Below are positions 2,225 through 41,936 of a stretch of 44,964 nt of DNA, one piece after another (within the stretch, counting starts at the first letter, position 1; every line of letters begins with the position of its first letter). This DNA is from Candidatus Dadabacteria bacterium UBA1144. GTDB lineage: Bacteria > Desulfobacterota_D > UBA1144. The DNA lies in contig CAJIYY010000024.1 in the NCBI GenBank assembly GCA_905181755.1, positions 1 to 44,964 on the forward strand. Direction: 5' to 3'. The notes beneath the pieces were generated by a model. That model worked only from the letters and a program-made list of their open reading frames with translations, did no database searches and was not told the origin of the DNA. The translations under genes and the position numbers were made by a program.

Positions 2225-3177
2225 GCCTTGTATTAGATTCTATAACTGAAGATAAACTTACTTTCGATAATGTAAATTTGTTTAAAATTTTAAATGGTAC
2301 AAATCAGTCTAATATTATAACAATCGAAAAGCTGCTGGACATTAAGATACATTCCAAGGGAAATGAGTTAATTTTAACCGGTCCCTCTAAAGAAGTTAGT
2401 TTAGGAAAAGATTTAATTCAGAATTTTTATAAAATAATATCTAAGGGCTACTTCCCCTCAGAGAATGATTTCAAGTCAGGGTTAAAGATAATTAGCGAAA
2501 AAACTCATACTATTGAGGACATTTTTCTTGATACTATTTGTGTAACAACAGGTCGGAAAACTATAGCGCCCAAAAGTATTAATCAGAAATTATATATAGA
2601 TTCAATAAAGAAAAACGATATTGTTTTTGGTATAGGGCCAGCTGGTACAGGAAAAACTTACTTAGCGGTTGCAACTGCAGTTGCATCCTTAAATATGAAG
2701 AAAGTAAAAAAAATAATACTTACGAGACCTGCTGTTGAAGCAGGAGAAAAACTTGGTTTTTTACCTGGAGATTTAAATGAAAAAGTTGATCCTTATCTTA
2801 AACCTCTATTTGATGCCCTTAACGATATGCTAGATTCTGAAACAGTCTCAAGATTGATTGACAAGCAAACTATTGAGATAGCTCCTATTGCATTTATGAG
2901 AGGAAGAACTTTAAATGATGCATTTATAATTTTAGACGAAGCTCAAAATACTACTTCCTCGCAAATGAAAATGTTTCTTACACGAATTGGATTTAATTCT
3001 AAGTGTGTAATCACAGGAGATGTAACACAAATTGACCTAGATAGAAGTTCTAAGTCAGGCCTTATAGAGGCTCAATCAATTTTAAAGGATATTGATGAAA
3101 TAGAATTTTGCTCTTTTGACGAAAATGACGTGGTACGTCATAGATTAGTAAAGAAAATAATAGAAGCTTACAAATAA
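2221..3177 (+). CDS. phoH: PhoH-like ATPase
   Basis: Walker A GPAGTGKTYLAVA, GFLPGD, ILDEAQN and GDVTQIDL are all PhoH family signatures. The start makes a 4-nt overlap with the upstream gene. Confidence 0.9.
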   Translation: MSLVLDSITEDKLTFDNVNLFKILNGTNQSNIITIEKLLDIKIHSKGNELILTGPSKEVSLGKDLIQNFYKIISKGYFPSENDFKSGLKIISEKTHTIEDIFLDTICVTTGRKTIAPKSINQKLYIDSIKKNDIVFGIGPAGTGKTYLAVATAVASLNMKKVKKIILTRPAVEAGEKLGFLPGDLNEKVDPYLKPLFDALNDMLDSETVSRLIDKQTIEIAPIAFMRGRTLNDAFIILDEAQNTTSSQMKMFLTRIGFNSKCVITGDVTQIDLDRSSKSGLIEAQSILKDIDEIEFCSFDENDVVRHRLVKKIIEAYK

Positions 3178-4448
3178 ATTATTTCGTCTCTTTCAGGGCC
3201 TATAGAGATCATCGTAACCTTGACCTTCAGAAAAGATTCGACAAACTTAATTAGAGATTTTAGACTTCTAGGAACTTTATTTGTAGATAATTCATCCATA
3301 GACCAAGAAGGAAATTCTTTATAAATAGGCTTTACTTTAGCTAGGTCTTCTAATCTTAATGGATATGATGATAGTTTTTTATTTTCTAATTTATATCCCG
3401 TGCAAACTCTAATTTTCTTAAAAATTGACAGTATATCAACTTTTGTGAGAACTAATGAATTTATACCAGAAACTGTAACGGCATATTTCAGAGCCACAAG
3501 ATCTAGCCATCCACACCTTCTAGGTCTTCCGGTTGTTGCCCCATACTCAGTACCAAACTCTCGAAGAGTTAAGCCTTGGTCGTCAAACATCTCGGTCGGA
3601 AATGGACCATGTCCGACTCTAGTAGTATAGGCCTTAGATATACCGGTTACATCTCCAAGCTTTGAGAATGAAACACCGCAACCAGCTGAGGCATTAGAAG
3701 AGATAGTTGAAGAAGAGGTTACGAAAGGATAAGTGCCAAAGTCTAAATCTAGCATAACTCCCTGTGCACCTTCGAATAAAACTCTTTTATCTTTAGCTAT
3801 ACTTTCATTTAGAAATTTCCCTGTATCTGAAACAAACTCTCTAAGGTACCGATAATTTTTATATAGATCTTCTACTATAAGCTTCTTGCTCAGTCCTTTT
3901 TTGTTAAATATTTTAGAAATAATCTTGTTTTTTTCTTTTAATATATTATTAATCTTTTCGTTTAAAAGCTTCTTGTCTTCTAAATCAATAACTCTTATAC
4001 CCTGCCTTGAAACCTTATCCTCATAAGCTGGTCCAATTCCTCTACCTGTAGTTCCTATTGCATTGTTACCCTTCATTAATTCTCTTTCTTGATCGATTAT
4101 TTTATGATAGGGGGCAATAATATGAGCTAAGGAGCTTAATTTTAAATTCTTACCTGTAACATTAAAGCCGCTTCTTCTCAGTCCCTTTATTTCCTTAACT
4201 AGAGTAGCTAAGTCGACAACTGTACCATTGCCGATGACAGAAACTTTTCCTTTTCTTAATACTCCTGAAGGAATATGATGTAAAACAATTTTTTTATTTT
4301 TAATAATGATTGTATGGCCAGCGTTGCTTCCACCCTGAAAACGAGCAATAATATCATAGTTCTCAGAAACCAAATCTATTATTCTTCCCTTACCTTCGTC
4401 GCCCCATTGAGCACCTACAAAAACTGAGTTTTTCATTTTCTTAGTCAA
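3168..4448 (-). CDS. purA: Adenylosuccinate synthetase
   Basis: GAQWGDEGKGRIID, GGSNAGHT, TTGRGIGPAYEDK and ATTGRPRRCGWLD; full length 426 aa. Confidence 0.95.
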   Translation of the reverse strand: MTKKMKNSVFVGAQWGDEGKGRIIDLVSENYDIIARFQGGSNAGHTIIIKNKKIVLHHIPSGVLRKGKVSVIGNGTVVDLATLVKEIKGLRRSGFNVTGKNLKLSSLAHIIAPYHKIIDQERELMKGNNAIGTTGRGIGPAYEDKVSRQGIRVIDLEDKKLLNEKINNILKEKNKIISKIFNKKGLSKKLIVEDLYKNYRYLREFVSDTGKFLNESIAKDKRVLFEGAQGVMLDLDFGTYPFVTSSSTISSNASAGCGVSFSKLGDVTGISKAYTTRVGHGPFPTEMFDDQGLTLREFGTEYGATTGRPRRCGWLDLVALKYAVTVSGINSLVLTKVDILSIFKKIRVCTGYKLENKKLSSYPLRLEDLAKVKPIYKEFPSWSMDELSTNKVPRSLKSLIKFVESFLKVKVTMISIGPERDEIIYL

Positions 4449-5664: not shown

Positions 5665-7262
5665 CCAAAAATTACCTGATCTACACTTTTAACTTCGGAC
5701 AAATTAGCAATAGCTTCCAAGGTGTCCTCCGAAACCGGTGAGTCAACCGAGATGAAAGCTAGAGCGTAATCTTCCTTCTCAGAGTTCTCCTGCCTACTTA
5801 GATATAACCTGGCTATATTTATATTTTTCTCCCCCAGAGCTGCTCCAAGAAGTCCTACGACTCCTGGTTTGTCATAGTTTTGTATCATTAGAATATTCCC
5901 TTCTGGTATCAGGTCTATAGGCTGGTTGTTTAATTTTATAAATCTTGCTTCTTTCATCCCAAAAAGAGATCCAGAGATTGATAGTTCTTCTGAATCGGTC
6001 TTTATAATAACCGAAACAAGACTAGAAAACTCATCCTCATTAGATACTTTAGCTTCAGTAAGCTTTATACCTCTTTCTTCCGCAATCAAGGGTGCATTTA
6101 CGTAAGTAACAGGAGCGCTCATTATAGGAGATAGATACCCCTTTAGAGCAGTTATGGTCAATGGTGCCACATTAGTCTCAGCGACATTCCCACTATATTC
6201 AACAATAATTTCCTTAACGCCTGATTTACATGTTTGACCCATAAAAATTCCAAGTTTTTCACATAGGTTTAAATATGGACTAATCTCATTTAAAACCTCG
6301 TTGCTCATCGAAGGCATGTTTAAGGCATTTGATACAACTCCGTCGTTTGCAAACTCAATAACTTGTTCAGCCATAGCAATTCCAACTTTCATCTGAGCTT
6401 CCTGTGTTGAGGCTCCCAAGTGTGGTGTAAAGACTACCCCTTCTTGAAGGTTAAAAATTGGCGACTTAAAATCGGGTGGCTCAGGATTAAAGACATCTAT
6501 AGCAAGGCCTCCAACTTTTCCTGATGAAATAGCTTCTGCGATATCTTCCTCGTTTACTATGCCGCCCCTCGCGCAATTAATAATCATAACTCCGTCTTTC
6601 ATCATTTGTATAGAACCCTTAGAAATAAGATTCTTCGTTGTAGAAGTTAGAGGAGCATGGACAGATATAACATCTGAAAGCTTAAATACTTCATCCATAT
6701 CCACCAGTTCTACTGGCATGTTTAAATTAGTACCTTTTGCGATATATGGATCATGTGCAATAACCTTCATCTTTAAACCAAGAGCTCTTTCCGCAACCAG
6801 TCTTCCTATGTTACCCATTCCAATCAATCCAATAGTTTTTCCATACAACTCTGTTCCTTGAAACTTTGGACGCTCCCACTTCTTAGACTGCATAGACATA
6901 TGAGCTTGAGGAGTTTTCCTTGCTAAAGAAAAGAGGAGAGCAATAGTGTGCTCGGCGGTAGTGATAGCGTTTGCCGAAGGAGTATTCATTACAATAATTC
7001 CTTTTTTCGAAGCTGCTTTTATATCAACGTTGTCAACACCAATCCCAGCCCTTCCAATTAGCTTGAATCCCTCATCCAACAACTCGACAATTTCAGAATC
7101 AATAGTTGTAGCGCTTCTTATTATTACCGCTTCGTAATTATTTATTATTTTCTTAAGCTCTTCTCTATCTGTCTTCTTTCTAACATCAACCTCTATGTTC
7201 TTATGATTAGCAAACAAAGCTAATCCCTCTTTTGAAAGGCCGTCAGTAATTAATATCTTCAA
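5661..7262 (-). CDS. serA: D-3-phosphoglycerate dehydrogenase, long form with C-terminal regulatory domains
   Basis: NAD-binding GLIGMGNIGRLVA, catalytic-region blocks (NCARGG, TPHLGAST), and a 533-aa length consistent with the ASB+ACT long type. Its 3' end makes a 4-nt overlap with the hisZ start. Confidence 0.9.
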   Translation of the reverse strand: MKILITDGLSKEGLALFANHKNIEVDVRKKTDREELKKIINNYEAVIIRSATTIDSEIVELLDEGFKLIGRAGIGVDNVDIKAASKKGIIVMNTPSANAITTAEHTIALLFSLARKTPQAHMSMQSKKWERPKFQGTELYGKTIGLIGMGNIGRLVAERALGLKMKVIAHDPYIAKGTNLNMPVELVDMDEVFKLSDVISVHAPLTSTTKNLISKGSIQMMKDGVMIINCARGGIVNEEDIAEAISSGKVGGLAIDVFNPEPPDFKSPIFNLQEGVVFTPHLGASTQEAQMKVGIAMAEQVIEFANDGVVSNALNMPSMSNEVLNEISPYLNLCEKLGIFMGQTCKSGVKEIIVEYSGNVAETNVAPLTITALKGYLSPIMSAPVTYVNAPLIAEERGIKLTEAKVSNEDEFSSLVSVIIKTDSEELSISGSLFGMKEARFIKLNNQPIDLIPEGNILMIQNYDKPGVVGLLGAALGEKNINIARLYLSRQENSEKEDYALAFISVDSPVSEDTLEAIANLSEVKSVDQVIFG

Positions 7263-10983: not shown

Positions 10984-12333
10984 TTATTTATCCCAAGGAT
11001 GTTTCTTCTCGGGTTTCTGCGTATAAGGATTTTCTTTATCAGGATGAAAATACTTGAAGGTATTAACGTGTTGATCAGTATAAGAACCTGGAGGATAATA
11101 TTTATCATAAAAATCCAAATCCATATTCTGAGCCTGGAAAACTAATCTCATATACATTGGATCGACATAAGCTGGAAAGGATCCATAGGTATTGTAAATA
11201 TAGTCGGCAACAGACTTAACAATCTCATTTGTTGTATCGGTAGGTCTTGGTGCCTTAACTAAATGTTTATCTGGCTCTGCATAAGGAAAAGGTTTTTTAC
11301 TATCCCAAGCAGCCCATTTATGTTCATCCATTTTATCAAAAGCTTCTGACATATCTTTGTAATAAGGAGGGCAGTACCCTTCAAAAATTCCATCTTTACC
11401 AACAGGTCTAGTAGGACCAGACTTTGGTTGTTCAAATCTAAAACCTAACCCTTTAAAGAGTTCCGGATTTGATCCTAGGGTAAACCTTGGTATAAGACCA
11501 GTGAATGTCCAACCACCTAACCCAAGAGCTTGAAGTGCTAGTGACATATTCTGGCAAATAAATGCTTGTTCAACATTGAGACCTGTAAGTATTCTGACCT
11601 CAAGATCATAGAGTGACATTTTGACTTCTTCTTTTATTCTTCCAGAAGCAATCCATTTGTCTTGACCGCAAGAGCGATTATTTTTTTCATCCCAAATATT
11701 GAAGGCATAAGTACTACTACAATAAAGTGTTAGTAAATTTAAATACTCCTCAGTTATATCAGTGACAGGAATAAATGTTGTAGTCCCTGGCTTGTTCGTA
11801 TTCCATTGATTAAAGTCAAAGAGGCCTGGCATCTTGTCTGGCAAATTAGCCCTACCGTCTTCAAGCTTAACAAGTCCTTCTCTATATAGTTCTAACAATC
11901 TGTCAATTTTATCATTAACATCTAGCCTAAAAAAGACATCTAGTTCTTTGTCTTTTGGCAACATGTTTTTAACATCCACATAATAAAGACCAGAGTCATT
12001 AGTAAAGAATAGCTCTGTACCGTGGTTATTACATGCAGATGGCCAAGTTCTACCGGTCCATTGACACAGCAAATCAATTCCATTCTCTGGTGGTAAATCT
12101 GCTAAACACAATCCTGTTAATCCTGTTCCTGCCCAAACCAGCATAGCTTCCTGAAACTCTGTCAAAGGGACTGGATCTATTTTTGATTTATAGCCTAGGG
12201 AACTATCGGATGGTAGCTCCATACCCAAACCAAACCTTCTGGATCTTCTATTAAAAATAGCTTCGAAGAGTGGATATTTTAAAGCTGCTTCGTAATTTAT
12301 TTTACCTTTAGTTTTTCCATTTTTTTTTGTCAT
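10984..12333 (-). CDS. SagB-type / nitroreductase-superfamily-like protein with long insertion and C-terminal extension; function unknown
   Basis: Nitroreductase-fold hallmarks: LFEAIFNRRSRRF near the N-terminus, RTWPSACNNHGTELFF..GLYYV (PSAG-like block), and QNMSLALQALGLGGW at about residue 261-275. I prefer the ATG at 12333, preceded by GAGGTG, over the upstream ATG at 12372 in the ORF track. Confidence 0.55.
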   Translation of the reverse strand: MTKKNGKTKGKINYEAALKYPLFEAIFNRRSRRFGLGMELPSDSSLGYKSKIDPVPLTEFQEAMLVWAGTGLTGLCLADLPPENGIDLLCQWTGRTWPSACNNHGTELFFTNDSGLYYVDVKNMLPKDKELDVFFRLDVNDKIDRLLELYREGLVKLEDGRANLPDKMPGLFDFNQWNTNKPGTTTFIPVTDITEEYLNLLTLYCSSTYAFNIWDEKNNRSCGQDKWIASGRIKEEVKMSLYDLEVRILTGLNVEQAFICQNMSLALQALGLGGWTFTGLIPRFTLGSNPELFKGLGFRFEQPKSGPTRPVGKDGIFEGYCPPYYKDMSEAFDKMDEHKWAAWDSKKPFPYAEPDKHLVKAPRPTDTTNEIVKSVADYIYNTYGSFPAYVDPMYMRLVFQAQNMDLDFYDKYYPPGSYTDQHVNTFKYFHPDKENPYTQKPEKKHPWDK

Positions 12334-12393
12334 ACGGACACCTCGCTTGTCAACTAAGTAAGTATAAATCAAAAGAATGGGTTTGAAAATGAA

Positions 12394-12822
12394 TTAGGCT
12401 AAAGCAAGCTTTTTAGTTTCTTCTCTTTCTAGCTCTCTTATGGCTAATTTAACAGTTGAGATTCCTAGAGTGGAGCATTTTGGACGAGAGAGAGCAAGCT
12501 CTTCACCAATAATATCGGTGATAACCTCAGGCCCCATGCTTAAGACTTCTTCTTTGGACTTCCCGATTACCACTTCAGATATAATCGAAGTACCTGCCTG
12601 ACTAACAATACAACCCTCACCTTCAAACTTAAAATCGGTAATAATTCCATCTTGGAATTGAAGACAAACAGTAACAATATCTCCGCACCCTGGGTTGCCA
12701 CCATTCTGCTTAATATCACATTTGTGCGCATCTTCACTTACATCATTTAGAGAACCCGCATTTCTGGGGTTCTCATAATGATCTAGTATAAAGTCCATCA
12801 ATTCCTGCTTATCTTTTGTCAA
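12394..12822 (-). CDS. sufU: SufU/IscU-type Fe-S cluster scaffold / sulfur acceptor (NifU N-terminal-like)
   Basis: ILDHYENPRN, NPGCGD, GEGCIVSQAGTS and SRPKCS give the three conserved Cys ligand blocks of SufU-type proteins. A GAGGA SD lies in the 11-nt gap after the rhodanese stop. Confidence 0.8.
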   Translation of the reverse strand: MTKDKQELMDFILDHYENPRNAGSLNDVSEDAHKCDIKQNGGNPGCGDIVTVCLQFQDGIITDFKFEGEGCIVSQAGTSIISEVVIGKSKEEVLSMGPEVITDIIGEELALSRPKCSTLGISTVKLAIRELEREETKKLALA

Positions 12823-12833
12823 TAAAATCCTCT

Positions 12834-13676
12834 TTATTTTTCAATTGGTGCTTGAACCAAATTTCCCCACTCGGTCCAAGATCCATCATAATTTTTGACG
12901 CTCTTATATCCAAGCAAATAGGTTAAAACAAACCAAGTGTGTGAAGATCGTTCACCTATTCTACAATAAGCAATAACATCATCCTCAGGCTTAAGCCCAG
13001 CTCCACCTTGATATATCTCTAATAATTCATCAGCAGACTTGAATGTACCATCCTCATTTGCGGCAGTAGCCCACGGTACACTTTTTGCATTAGGTATATG
13101 ACCGCCCCTAAGCGCACCTTCTTGAGGGTAAGCTTCCATATGCAACATTTCACCACTAAACTCTTTTGGTGATCTAACATCAATCAAAGAACCCAAAGCA
13201 GCGCTATGTTCTTTAACTTCTTCTCTAAAGGCTCGAATATTCAAATTAATATCGCTGACTTTATAGTTTGTATTTTCTGAAGCTGGAACGTCTCTAGTCA
13301 CGGGCTTATCTTCTTGAACCCATTTCTGTCTTCCACCATTCATAATAAGACATTTGGCATGTCCATATATTTTAAATGTCCAAAGAGCATAGCATGCCCA
13401 CCAATTGCTTTTGTCACCATAAAACACTATCGTATCTTCAGGTGAAATACCTTTAGAAGACATAAGTTTTTCAAAATTTTCCTTATTAACATAGTCTCTT
13501 ATTAGACTATCCTGAAGCTCAGTCTCCCAATCTAATTTAATTGCGCCTTCTATATGACCAATGTCATACAAAAGAATATCCTCGTTAGATTCAACTATCT
13601 TAATTCCTGGCTTATCTTTATTCTCAAGAACCCAATCGGTTGAAACTAACAACTCGGGATTTTTATATTCTGCCAT
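12834..13676 (-). CDS. Two-domain rhodanese (thiosulfate/3-mercaptopyruvate sulfurtransferase family)
   Basis: Active-site loop [13 protein letters not shown]-terminal [10 protein letters not shown], and a tandem rhodanese architecture of 280 aa. A GGAGG SD lies at 13683-13687. Confidence 0.85.
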
Positions 13677-13688
13677 TTTATTCCTCCA

Positions 13689-13715
13689 TCTGACTTTACT
13701 ACAAGTGAAGTCAGA
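13689..13715 (-). promoter_or_regulatory. 8-bp stem / 11-nt loop hairpin one nucleotide upstream of the rhodanese Shine-Dalgarno; candidate translational or attenuator element
   Basis: Inverted repeat TCTGACTT (13689-13696) / AAGTCAGA (13708-13715). There is no following U-tract, so it is not a classic intrinsic terminator. It lies between the poly-Cys sORF stop and the rhodanese SD. Confidence 0.45.
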
Positions 13716-13746
13716 AAATATTTAAATTTTAATCTTATAACTAGAA

Positions 13747-13836
13747 CTATTTGTAGTTACAACAACACAAGTTTGAGATTCTACAACAACAAGTAGCAGC
13801 AAAGCTAACAAAATTGATACTTACTGTCTTAGACAT
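13747..13836 (-). CDS. 29-codon poly-cysteine small ORF (leader peptide or small Cys-rich peptide): MSKTVSINFVSFAATCCCRISNLCCCNYK
   Basis: Hand-translated: AGGAG (revcomp of 13843-13847), 6-nt spacer, ATG at 13836, TAG at 13749-13747. Six UGU Cys codons fall in two triplet runs. It is co-oriented with, and 70 nt upstream of, the rhodanese gene. Confidence 0.6.
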   Translation of the reverse strand: MSKTVSINFVSFAATCCCRISNLCCCNYK

Positions 13837-13952
13837 AACAAACTCCTAATCTTTAATTTGTAACTCAAAGAGGAAAGGCATTGAATAACACCTTTGCCCT
13901 ATTTAGCAATTCTTTAAAGTCGCTGCAATTAGAGTTAAATGACGACATTAAT

Positions 13953-13982
13953 ATTATAGCACTTAAATAAAATAAAAATCAA
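13953..13982 (-). promoter_or_regulatory. Putative sigma70-type promoter with extended -10 for the sORF-rhodanese-sufU operon
   Basis: On the minus strand: TTGATT (13982-13977), 18-nt spacer, TGcTATAAT (-10 at 13958-13953). An AT-rich background makes chance matches likely. Confidence 0.35.
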
Positions 13983-14024
13983 TATTATATTTCAATAAGA
14001 TAATCAGTAGGTTATTATTAAGCC

Positions 14025-14267
14025 ATGAGTGAAAATGAAGAAAAACCAGTTGAAGAGCCTTCTAGTAAGGCCAGCACTGAGCCTGAAGCTTCAGAAGCAG
14101 AGTCTAGCGAAGTAGGTGAGGAATCACATACTGTACTAGATTACCCCGATAGAGTTCCCAATGCTGAAAGAGGTGCAAGCCATTCCCATTCATATGTGAT
14201 GCTTAAAATATTAGTTCTTATGATATTTTTTTCTCTACTAATGGCCAAATTTACTTCACCTTTCTAG
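14025..14267 (+). CDS. Hypothetical small protein: acidic low-complexity N-terminus plus a single C-terminal transmembrane helix
   Basis: 80-aa ORF. The E/S/P-rich first 35 residues are followed by VMLKILVLMIFFSLLMAKF. It fills what would otherwise be an unusually long non-coding gap. The SD is weak and I recognise no homology. Confidence 0.4.
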   Translation: MSENEEKPVEEPSSKASTEPEASEAESSEVGEESHTVLDYPDRVPNAERGASHSHSYVMLKILVLMIFFSLLMAKFTSPF

Positions 14268-41382: not shown

Positions 41383-41643
41383 TTATAACAGTTTTTTTAA
41401 AGCTAAGTTGAGTTTGTTAGAAGGGCAGTCTATCTCTAAAGTTTTAATTTTGGACTTAAATCCTCTAGTTATTGATATTCTGGACTGTGGCACTCCAAAA
41501 AACTCTCCAAGAACTCTAACTAGTTCTTTGTTTGAGGCCCCTTTGTGTGGAATGGCGGCGACCTTAACTGATAAGACTTGAGAATCAAAACTAACCACTT
41601 CTGATTTAGCAGACCTGGGTTTAACTGAAGCTAGAATTTTCAC
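41383..41643 (-). CDS. yggU: DUF167 (YggU) family protein
   Basis: The V-K-P-x-A-K pattern, V-x-A-x-P-x-x-G-x-A-N-x-E-L, and a RGxxSKxK-like C-terminal block (ITRGFKSKIK). Confidence 0.75.
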   Translation of the reverse strand: MKILASVKPRSAKSEVVSFDSQVLSVKVAAIPHKGASNKELVRVLGEFFGVPQSRISITRGFKSKIKTLEIDCPSNKLNLALKKLL

Positions 41644-41645
41644 AG

Positions 41646-41936
41646 CTAAAAAATACTGGCAAGCTCATACAGAGACTTAATTAGGAAGCTTTTAAAAAAC
41701 TCAATTGCCAAAAGAACAACTATCGGGGAAATATCAAGTCCGCCCAAGTTTGGCATAACGCTTCTCACTAAACTTAGGACTGGCTCTGTCACTCTATATA
41801 GGAATTGGTACAAAGAAGTATAAGGATCAGGATTAAACCATGAGATTAGGGCTCTAATAATTATAAGCCAAAAAAACAAAGACATCGCCAGGTCTAAAAC
41901 TCTTGCAATAGCTATTAGTAAATTCGAAATAATCAT
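41646..41936 (-). CDS. yggT: YggT family membrane protein
   Basis: 96-aa two-TM protein with IIRALISWF..DP..........TEP.L...R and GLDISPIV blocks. It sits in the conserved position after yggS-proC. Confidence 0.8.
   Translation of the reverse strand: MIISNLLIAIARVLDLAMSLFFWLIIIRALISWFNPDPYTSLYQFLYRVTEPVLSLVRSVMPNLGGLDISPIVVLLAIEFFKSFLIKSLYELASIF

Follow-up and report, generated by a model that had tools for sequence, protein, structure and literature searches.

A polycysteine short open reading frame embedded in a SAM-II-like leader: a probable cysteine attenuator ahead of sulfur genes in marine Dadabacteria

What is a 29-codon reading frame with six cysteine codons doing directly upstream of a sulfur-transfer operon? 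The question is raised by a 44,964-nucleotide (nt) stretch of DNA from Candidatus Dadabacteria bacterium UBA1144 (GenBank assembly GCA_905181755.1, contig CAJIYY010000024.1, positions 1 to 44,964; hereafter the window), in which an earlier reading of the sequence, the original prediction, had noticed an unannotated polycysteine short open reading frame (sORF) on the minus strand. Its description of the sORF was accurate: the Shine-Dalgarno (SD) sequence AGGAG (13847-13843) is followed, after a 6-nt spacer, by ATG (13836-13834), the frame closes at TAG (13749-13747), and two runs of three UGU codons, confirmed at 13791-13783 and 13767-13759, start 8 codons apart (Table 1). The frame is co-oriented with the operon, and its stop lies 70 nt ahead of the rhodanese ATG at 13676. 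Cysteine takes up 21% of its codons (6/29) against 1.15% of codons in the long open reading frames (ORFs) of the window; in the window as a whole TGYTGYTGY occurs six times with 2.15 occurrences expected (3 of 100 shuffles reach six). ORFs of at least 100 amino acids (aa) cover 93% of the window, and the leader does stand out as the sole sizeable non-coding stretch among the interior gaps, the other gap holding two small genes; the length of about 350 nt once given for it belongs instead to the 348-nt divergent intergenic region (13677-14024), of which the predicted transcribed leader occupies only ~270 nt. Two functions had been suggested, a cysteine-sensing leader peptide and a genuine peptide product. 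The former is the best-supported explanation, in altered form: the sORF is probably a ribosome-mediated cysteine attenuator fused to the platform of an S-adenosylmethionine (SAM) riboswitch, the pair forming a composite attenuator that would act on translation rather than through a terminator.

The riboswitch component had been overlooked at first, and the sORF taken for a stand-alone attenuator. Transcription is predicted to start at ~G13946, 7 nt past the -10 box of a promoter-like site and at the first base of helix P1 of an aptamer, so that the aptamer would form the 5' end of the mRNA. In an Rfam scan run without the gathering cut-off, this aptamer gave a full-length match to RF00521 (SAM_alpha) that, at 33.9 bits, falls short of the gathering score of 36 (E 4e-6 in a local search to 7e-4 in a 64-kb search), and the alignment to the model matches the AUUU, UUGCA and GCUAAA positions conserved in SAM-II riboswitches. 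Its 3' tail AAAUAGGG can form a P2 pseudoknot with the P1 loop; across 11 leaders P1 can pair in 100% of alignment cells and P2 in 93.5%, without covariation, giving the potential for an H-type pseudoknot. As is typical of SAM-II elements, which lie in the 5' untranslated region (UTR) of methionine, SAM or sulfur genes, the aptamer stands ahead of genes for rhodanese, an SBP56-family protein, sulfite reductase or a ThrC-like pyridoxal phosphate (PLP) enzyme. The 5' element is on these features a SAM-II-class riboswitch candidate that would presumably bind SAM. The sORF starts ~110 nt past the predicted transcription start, with its SD ~50 nt past the aptamer tail. Every sORF found sits behind a SAM-II-like aptamer, and in 24 of 24 distinct leaders it lies within the expression platform of that aptamer.

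These leaders were collected from the loci of relatives, from contigs with close rhodanese homologues and through an aptamer-anchored pattern scan of metagenomes (4 N before TGCTAAA), which returned 39 loci; numbered loci are given below as L001 and so on. The scan of viral contigs with the aptamer pattern gave no match, and L081, L090 and L102 are uninformative for leader comparison, their upstream sequence being absent. The resulting set holds 24 distinct sORF-bearing leader sequences encoding 19 distinct peptides (among them MVKTLFVSLVSEVDTCCCNFSNLCCCNYK, MVEIISVLHACLADTCCCNFTNSCCCNYK, MLRTICSFVYDSNTCCCCISNLCCCNYK, MINLICIFCSCDENTCCCCLPSSCCCNYK, MLSIFNLKVENLCCFNISNSCCCSFK, MVKTSCVLFASVANTCCCDLSNSCCNYK, MVKTLSVLLANVTDICCCNFSNSCCCN, MTKLSFDTMNLLMNRDCYNLSSCCCNYK and MIKEKNIIFLFIAAPCCCCCN), one variant of which is present by exact look-up solely as an unnamed Joint Genome Institute (JGI) prediction. 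Conservation in syntenic relatives, a check suggested at the outset, was found in part. The gene order uvrA, small divergent ORF, leader, rhodanese, SufU-like and 462-aa gene is common to L001-L014; L001-L005 carry both aptamer and sORF, and L006-L014, with rhodaneses 79-84% identical and a shorter intergenic region, lack both.

Aptamer and platform occur in five contexts according to the aptamer-anchored scan. In the first, at many loci, they precede the rhodanese operon together with the sORF. In the second (L121 and L135) the sORF and the same spacer, hairpin and SD stand ahead of a gene of the SBP56/methanethiol oxidase family (Pfam 1.8e-181); the L121 cassette spans 2932-3187 and retains everything from the promoter through the second SD. 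The third (L123, minus strand, aptamer 1024-1063) has a CCCCC sORF and a different 3' part ahead of a sulfite/nitrite reductase-family gene, inside which the locus ends. In the fourth (L130 and L136/L139) the sORF is absent and the elements lie directly ahead of the ThrC-like PLP enzyme, which in L136 starts at the sORF-equivalent position past the platform in a similar GGAGUUUG-N-U-AUG context. The fifth combines a different tail with a GC-rich hairpin and a U7 tract ahead of lysine-rich small ORFs. As with the rhodanese in L006-L014, an SBP56 gene 90% identical to that of L121 occurs without the cassette (L142); this was the closest homologue in the SBP56 search, the next being ~69% identical, with Chloroflexota labels among the latter. 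The cassette thus precedes differing enzymes and is absent from close relatives, which indicates that the sORF travels with the riboswitch leader and not with a particular enzyme. In this sample the sORF precedes candidate reduced-sulfur-supply genes and not a homoserine-branch gene. A wider proposal is quite possible, if short of probable: that marine Dadabacteria use a portable cassette of ~300 nt (promoter, SAM-II aptamer, anti-SD platform, polycysteine sensor ORF and SD) as a two-input translational gate for SAM and Cys-tRNA, in which riboswitch and pausing sensor would share the same RNA strands, and that this gate was placed before unrelated reduced-sulfur genes (rhodanese operon, methanethiol oxidase, sulfite reductase) as a 'sulfur ribulon', with SAM-only versions controlling homoserine-branch genes.

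Comparison of the sORFs bears on whether their translation or their product is under selection. SD, ATG, frame, stop and cysteine runs are kept in the 19 distinct peptides while N-terminal positions drift. Nowhere in the leader is conservation lower than in codons 2-14, which are 44-62% identical between lineages compared to 53-62% at third codon positions of the rhodanese gene; the N-terminal half therefore changes as fast as synonymous sites in that gene do, with no visible amino-acid constraint. Over this variable stretch none of 12 divergent lineages has an in-frame stop (the shuffle probabilities multiply to 2.7e-7, which overstates significance since the 12 lineages are related and not fully independent), whereas the other two frames contain 1-3 stops in most of them. 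Conservation of this kind goes beyond chance. Length changes comprise whole codons, and the spacing from SD to ATG is kept. An open frame with drifting codons, as read from these alignments, is the signature of an ORF whose translation would matter and whose product sequence would not, the cysteines excepted. In all variants but L121 there is a run of at least two cysteines at each position; outside L121 the first run has 2-4 codons, the second is reduced to two in L141, and L123 has a single run of five, giving 1 to 5 cysteines per run and up to 10 per peptide. The sORFs of L128 and L123 end at CCCN, an early stop removing the C-terminal Tyr-Lys, which is therefore dispensable. Most likely the sORF serves as a sensor and not as the source of a product.

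By the same evidence the sORF is unlikely to be the gene of a small, functional peptide rich in thiols (a carrier of persulfide or polysulfide, a metal binder or a redox buffer), a gene that would stand first in a SAM-riboswitch-regulated operon and whose product would work with the sulfur enzymes. Such a peptide would account for the conserved cysteine runs and for the C-terminal CCC-N-Y-K found in most variants, some with 10 cysteines, but not for an N-terminal half evolving at the synonymous rate, for a Tyr-Lys end that two variants do without, or for a cysteine count that varies from run to run. The good SD, the sORF standing where a real gene (ThrC-like) stands behind the same platform in L130 and L136, and neighbours of the rhodanese and SufU-like types, which handle sulfane sulfur, are in keeping with a product; yet three unrelated enzymes follow the sORF, close relatives keep the enzymes without it, the rarer C-ending codons at its conserved 3' end point to constraint at the RNA level, and NCBIfam gives neither a family nor a precursor-family match to the peptide. 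A cysteine-rich product induced when sulfur metabolites are low would also be counter-intuitive: a peptide with 5-10 cysteines in 21-29 residues would, by inference, be wasteful to induce under sulfur limitation.

For the sensor reading, the structure of the leader offers a reason why the 3' half of the sORF is conserved. For 11 leaders, and again for 19, RNAalifold predicted one and the same fold, with aptamer P1, a hairpin on either side of the sORF and pairing of the anti-SD UUCCUCU with the rhodanese SD GGAGGAA. The platform UUCCUCU-UUGAGUUACAA is nearly invariant in all sORF leaders and recurs in the sORF-less ThrC-context leaders (L130, L136). Its UUGAGUUACAA portion is predicted to pair with UUGUAACUACAA, at the 3' end of the sORF, in a long-range helix of 11 pairs (100% of cells in the 11 leaders; each pair formed in 18-19 of the 19 leaders, with one G·A mismatch and one gap), stacked on the anti-SD/SD pairing. 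A second predicted helix joins CAAACUU, between the cysteine runs, to GAGUUUG, at the SD of the sORF (7 pairs, 96% of cells), where changes are one-sided and wobble-compatible except for one two-sided change in L121. Codon choice in the sORF lends the first helix indirect support. The rarer codons AAC and TAC (genome-wide shares of 33% of Asn and 28% of Tyr) are retained at the paired 3' end throughout, apart from the L003 type (AGC UUC) and the two early-stop variants, and the second cysteine run is always UGU although UGU and UGC share cysteine at 56% and 44% genome-wide. The sole amino-acid changes at the 3' end are those of L003: Asn to Ser turns U-A into U-G, at a wobble-compatible position, and Tyr to Phe falls on a bulge. 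The conserved 3' half thus appears better explained by RNA than by peptide.

Taken further, this would make the ORF itself an irrelevant, untranslated by-product of a leader in which only the riboswitch regulates, UGU-rich strands merely happening to read as cysteine. The conserved part of the ORF does coincide with the predicted helix strands UUGUAAC and CAAACUU, and the platform of sORF-less L130 has UACAA...UUGUA, judged by eye to allow a small local hairpin, which suggests that UGU strands predate the ORF. A by-product is nevertheless quite unlikely to have kept an SD and ATG at the right spacing, a frame free of stops over the least conserved part of the leader, and insertions and deletions in multiples of three; moreover, nearly all variants retain the first cysteine run, although no predicted helix includes it.

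The remaining elements suggest how a translated sORF could be linked to the rhodanese gene. The hairpin directly 3' of the aptamer, in which five of seven pairs change on both sides, can be extended by the aptamer tail (AAAUAGRG), whose alternative partner is UCCUCUUU, and the following U/C-rich stretch, as a ligand-free alternative to the pseudoknot (97% of cells pairable). In L130 and L136 the tail AAACGGAG is combined with the platform CUCUUCG, by eye a two-sided change (tail A to G with platform U to C, also read as tail UA to CG with platform U to C) that keeps this alternative pairing and so supports it. The anti-SD UUCCUCU can pair with the rhodanese SD in 100% of cells across 11 leaders, and it can also pair with the own SD of the sORF (5 bp). 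Directly ahead of the rhodanese SD lies a further hairpin, in which three pairs change on both sides; similar hairpins were judged by eye to occur in several sORF-less relatives.

On the composite-attenuator reading, the ~270-nt leader would control translation initiation of the rhodanese, SufU-like and 462-aa genes from a transcript that begins, at ~13946, directly with the SAM-II-class pseudoknot aptamer. With SAM bound, the tail AAAUAGGG would pair with the aptamer loop; without SAM it would pair with the downstream pyrimidine stretch UUCCUCUUU. Locking of the tail in the pseudoknot would free UUCCUCUUU as an anti-SD which, stacked on the 11-bp UUGAGUUACAA/UUGUAACUACAA helix, would sequester the rhodanese SD GGAGGAA ~190 nt downstream. 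Ribosomes on the sORF would have to melt this helix. When Cys-tRNA is ample they would terminate quickly and the repressing fold would re-form, whereas scarce Cys-tRNA would stall them on the UGU runs, a ribosome stalled on the second run sitting on the helix and leaving the rhodanese SD exposed. The leader would in this way integrate SAM status, through the riboswitch, and cysteine status, through ribosome pausing, to set the expression of sulfur-acquisition genes, with the inputs combined either as OR (either shortage induces) or as AND. Transcription attenuation was considered and rejected for the window: the post-aptamer hairpin followed by UUUCCUCUUU fails the criteria of the terminator scan, which found no terminator-like site in 13600-14100. 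L123 alone has, by eye, a terminator-like hairpin after the sORF, CUCUUUUUAAUUAAAAGAG and then UUUUUGUG, between the sORF and the gene.

Thermodynamic modelling of four states in 24 leaders, with a stalled ribosome represented by masking ~28 nt around the first codon of the second cysteine run, lends the mechanism weak support, the effects being in the expected direction, small and variable. The mean unpaired probability of the rhodanese SD was 0.30 in the free leader, 0.12 with the aptamer locked and 0.22 with the aptamer locked and a ribosome on the second run. Several observations weigh against the mechanism. The masking effect is modest and varies between leaders, some of which gain no relief. 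The model opens the SD of the sORF itself slightly, rather than closing it, once the aptamer is locked, which makes it ambiguous which SD the riboswitch would control. The UUGAGUUACAA/UUGUAACUACAA helix and the anti-SD/SD pairing are invariant, so that covariation neither supports nor refutes them, and L128 and L121 each lose one or two pairs of the former without compensation. Every scored Dadabacteria-type aptamer falls under the gathering score of 36: besides the window, L083 reaches 35.4, L123 31.3 and L091 29.6 bits, with E-values between 3e-4 and 1e-2 for the four when 32-64 kb were searched. All sequences come from one narrow clade, hence their conservation partly reflects shared ancestry, and conserved cysteines would be expected equally of a functional thiol-rich peptide.

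Table 1. Features of the leader and the downstream operon in the window (minus strand coordinates given in ascending order).
Feature	Position	Strand	Remarks
Promoter-like site	13953..13982	minus	-35 TTGATT, 18-nt spacer, TG-extended -10 TATAAT; conserved in relatives
SAM-II-class aptamer candidate	13882..13956	minus	P1 13946-13942 with 13923-13919; loop CAUUUAACUCUAAUUGCAG; 3' tail AAAUAGGG 13904-13897
Hairpin directly 3' of aptamer	13876..13893	minus	5/7 pairs change on both sides
Shared expression platform UUCCUCU-UUGAGUUACAA	13858..13875	minus	anti-SD 13875-13869, then 5' strand of predicted helix 13868-13858
sORF Shine-Dalgarno AGGAG	13843..13847	minus	relatives: UGGAG, GGGAG or CGAGG
Polycysteine sORF MSKTVSINFVSFAATCCCRISNLCCCNYK and stop	13747..13836	minus	29 codons; 19 distinct homologous peptides
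Cys run 1	13783..13791	minus	UGU x3; relatives 1-4 Cys codons, sometimes UGC
Inter-Cys spacer CAAACUU	13769..13775	minus	predicted partner: sORF SD and spacer GAGUUUG 13845-13839
Cys run 2	13759..13767	minus	UGU x3; always UGU in variants with listed codons
Long-range helix 3' strand UUGUAACUACAA	13751..13762	minus	last Cys codons and Asn-Tyr-Lys; predicted partner UUGAGUUACAA 13868-13858
AU-rich spacer, sORF stop to pre-SD hairpin	13716..13746	minus	highly conserved
Hairpin directly ahead of rhodanese SD	13689..13715	minus	3 pairs change on both sides
Rhodanese SD GGAGGAA	13681..13687	minus	complementary to anti-SD UUCCUCU; 7 pairs, 100% of cells
Two-domain rhodanese (thiosulfate/3-mercaptopyruvate sulfurtransferase type)	12834..13676	minus	Pfam PF00581 4.5e-31; NCBIfam sub-threshold
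NifU_N/SufU-like protein	12394..12822	minus	Pfam PF01592 1.5e-22; TIGR01994 SufU 76 bits, below cut-off 92.5
462-aa conserved protein, last operon gene	10984..12372	minus	family unclassified

Among the operon genes, proteins identical to the rhodanese are named thiosulfate/3-mercaptopyruvate sulfurtransferase by their sources, and in non-marine relatives an extra ~500 nt lie between the rhodanese and SufU-like genes. The third gene, described earlier as SagB-like, has not been borne out as such: the 462-aa protein has no match in Pfam, NCBIfam or a profile search of PDB sequences, and its AlphaFold model, of low confidence (pLDDT 65), gives weak nitroreductase-like Foldseek matches, the best with E 0.044. 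A protein search found 709 homologues, mostly in metagenome-assembled genomes (MAGs) labelled Dadabacteria or Thermodesulfobacteriota; the closest MAGs are 94-97% identical in this protein, by which the source of the window is identified as a marine member of Dadabacteria/Thermodesulfobacteriota. Conservation is strong in the family (window, L027 and L015-L080), Cys114, His117 and the stretches around RRSRRFG and QWTGR-WP being invariant, and in some cases two paralogues share a contig (P0016 and P0088, on a contig of 2.67 Mb). The gene is present in 455 genome loci, and the sORF in 5 of the 80 examined. That the sORF is the precursor of a ribosomally synthesized and post-translationally modified peptide (RiPP), of the streptolysin S or thiazole/oxazole-modified microcin (TOMM) type, with the 462-aa protein as a SagB-type dehydrogenase, is very improbable: beyond a cysteine-rich peptide and the nitroreductase-like matches, with McbC lower down (E ~2.3), there is neither YcaO nor another cyclodehydratase in the three-gene operon, the 462-aa gene mostly occurs without the sORF and does not follow it ahead of SBP56 and sulfite reductase (the L123 locus ending within the reductase gene), and the peptides reverse the usual pattern, having a variable N-terminus in place of a conserved leader and a conserved C-terminus. 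The product reading of the original prediction, whether as a streptolysin-S-like precursor or as a thiolate carrier, accordingly finds no support in the unproven SagB, the absent YcaO, the unrelated genes that follow, the neutral N-terminal half or the Tyr-Lys lost from two variants.

Several further features were recorded around the leader. The AU-rich spacer between sORF and pre-SD hairpin (UAGUUAUAAAyUUAAAAUUUAAUUUUUUU) is nearly invariant, conserved above the N-terminal codons of the sORF, and no pairing partner was identified for it. Two other small frames were rejected, an 11-codon mini-ORF (MPFLFELQIKD, start ~13881) and a 27-codon ORF (13948-13865) that overlaps the aptamer; the ATG of each lies within the hairpin or aptamer, frame and length are unconserved, and L001 lacks the ATG of the former. 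Divergent from the leader is an 80-aa ORF (14025-14267, plus strand), its 3' end overlapping the end of uvrA on the opposite strand; the encoded protein is acidic at its N-terminus, has a hydrophobic C-terminal helix and contains the conserved motif ...YPDRVPNAERGAxHxHxYVM.... The ORF is kept at the same position in the marine Dadabacteria loci L001-L014, is predicted as a gene of 80-102 aa on several metagenome contigs and has no Pfam or NCBIfam match. The other interior gap (41383-41936, minus strand) holds small ORFs of 86 and 96 aa, the latter membrane-protein-like.

Other loci show how the aptamer core is combined elsewhere. L130 (minus strand, aptamer 2568-2607) and L136 (aptamer 5910-5949) have a UUUCCUCUUCGAGUUACA platform without an sORF; their ThrC-like PLP enzyme bears an N-terminal cysteine-rich motif, and the SD region of L136, ACGGAG, is a copy of the aptamer tail AAACGGAG. 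The loci of the fifth context (L103, L107, L114-L120, L122, L124, L126, L127 and L140) share the tail AAACCGAG, the GC-rich hairpin and a U-rich tract, which together are terminator-like. Their lysine-rich small ORFs encode ~28-75 aa, most with an LKRLNLDTxPE[YW][ST]I-like motif, and the one tested had no Pfam match. L126 carries tandem aptamers (322-361 and 412-470), the first consisting of the shared core with a terminator-like hairpin, the second passing, with 44.7 bits, the gathering score of 44 for RF01726 (SAM-II long loop), an arrangement similar to a published SAM-II/SAM-V tandem of Pelagibacter (PMC11508383). In L133 (aptamer 2871-2910) aptamer, hairpin and platform are followed by unrelated sequence without an sORF, by rearrangement or as an assembly chimera.

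If the composite-attenuator reading is correct, cysteine-sensing leader ORFs would extend from mycobacteria, the only characterized case found in the literature searched, to an uncultured, genome-streamlined marine phylum, and both end-products of sulfur assimilation would be monitored by a single short leader, which would sense SAM directly by its RNA and cysteine by the pace of the ribosome. It would also suggest that streamlined marine bacteria regulate the acquisition of sulfur from thiosulfate, methanethiol and sulfite through mRNA leaders, with a bearing on marine sulfur cycling. The cassette is small, self-contained and modular, and might serve as a synthetic two-input part. More generally, coupled regulators can escape standard annotation when they lie in sub-threshold riboswitch matches and ORFs of fewer than 30 codons.

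The closest known system is that of the mycobacterial polycysteine leaderless sORFs (Ms5788A/Rv0815A, the 'Cys ribulon' of Canestrari et al.), in which stalled ribosomes relieve sequestration of an SD (bioRxiv 10.1101/834739). In both, a short unannotated ORF with consecutive cysteine codons near its 3' end lies co-oriented upstream of sulfur or cysteine genes, its 3' part is a predicted component of the fold which hides the downstream SD and which a ribosome starved of Cys-tRNA would open, the device recurs ahead of several sulfur genes, and positions other than cysteine may be constrained as nucleotides. The gene sets are also less different than had been claimed, the prototype operon led by Ms5788A including cysA2, a putative thiosulfate sulfurtransferase (bioRxiv 10.1101/834739). 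The differences lie elsewhere. The Dadabacteria sORF is SD-led, as the original prediction noted, unlike the leaderless mycobacterial sORFs. It lies behind the aptamer and starts ~110 nt into the predicted transcript; it has two cysteine runs in place of one terminal tract, and its cysteine tract is predicted to pair with an upstream strand adjoining a separate anti-SD instead of with the SD itself. It is further fused to a SAM-II-like aptamer, in an AT-rich marine Dadabacterium rather than an actinobacterium, and is known here from its sequence.

With SAM-II riboswitches (RF00521/RF01726) the leader shares H-type pseudoknot potential, the three sequence motifs and a place in the 5' UTR of methionine or sulfur genes, and marine loci with a hairpin and poly-U platform have an aptamer core identical to its own. 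SAM-II and SAM-V riboswitches normally occlude an SD within or next to P2a, and occlusion of the ribosome-binding site is the output expected here as well (PMC6061858). The leader departs from them in its sub-gathering score, in an SD that lies outside P2a and answers to a separate anti-SD released or captured by the tail, and in that the regulated SD may be ~190 nt away with the sORF in between. No report of a SAM riboswitch coupled to a cysteine-codon sORF, nor of riboswitches in Dadabacteria, was found in the literature search. In the translational attenuation of ermC and cat, as in the trp, his and leu leaders, alternative folds are chosen according to where a ribosome stands on a leader ORF, and in ermC the outcome is an exposed downstream SD. 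The trigger in ermC is an antibiotic-dependent arrest of the nascent chain, and the trp, his and leu leaders work through terminator and antiterminator hairpins, the former without a counterpart after the sORF in the 13600-14100 scan. The mgtA and mgtCBR leaders of Salmonella, in the account consulted, place ligand-sensing RNA and the proline-codon-rich sORFs mgtL and mgtP on shared alternative structures (PMC3641672; for mgtA/mgtL through its citation of Park et al. 2010). Neither their sequences nor their hosts are related to those here, the inputs there are Mg2+ or ATP with proline where SAM with cysteine is proposed here, and the output there is transcription elongation or Rho-dependent termination where translation initiation is predicted here. 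What the Dadabacteria leader would have in common with them is its basic design, in which a single leader joins a ligand-sensing RNA to a short ORF reporting the charging of one tRNA species.

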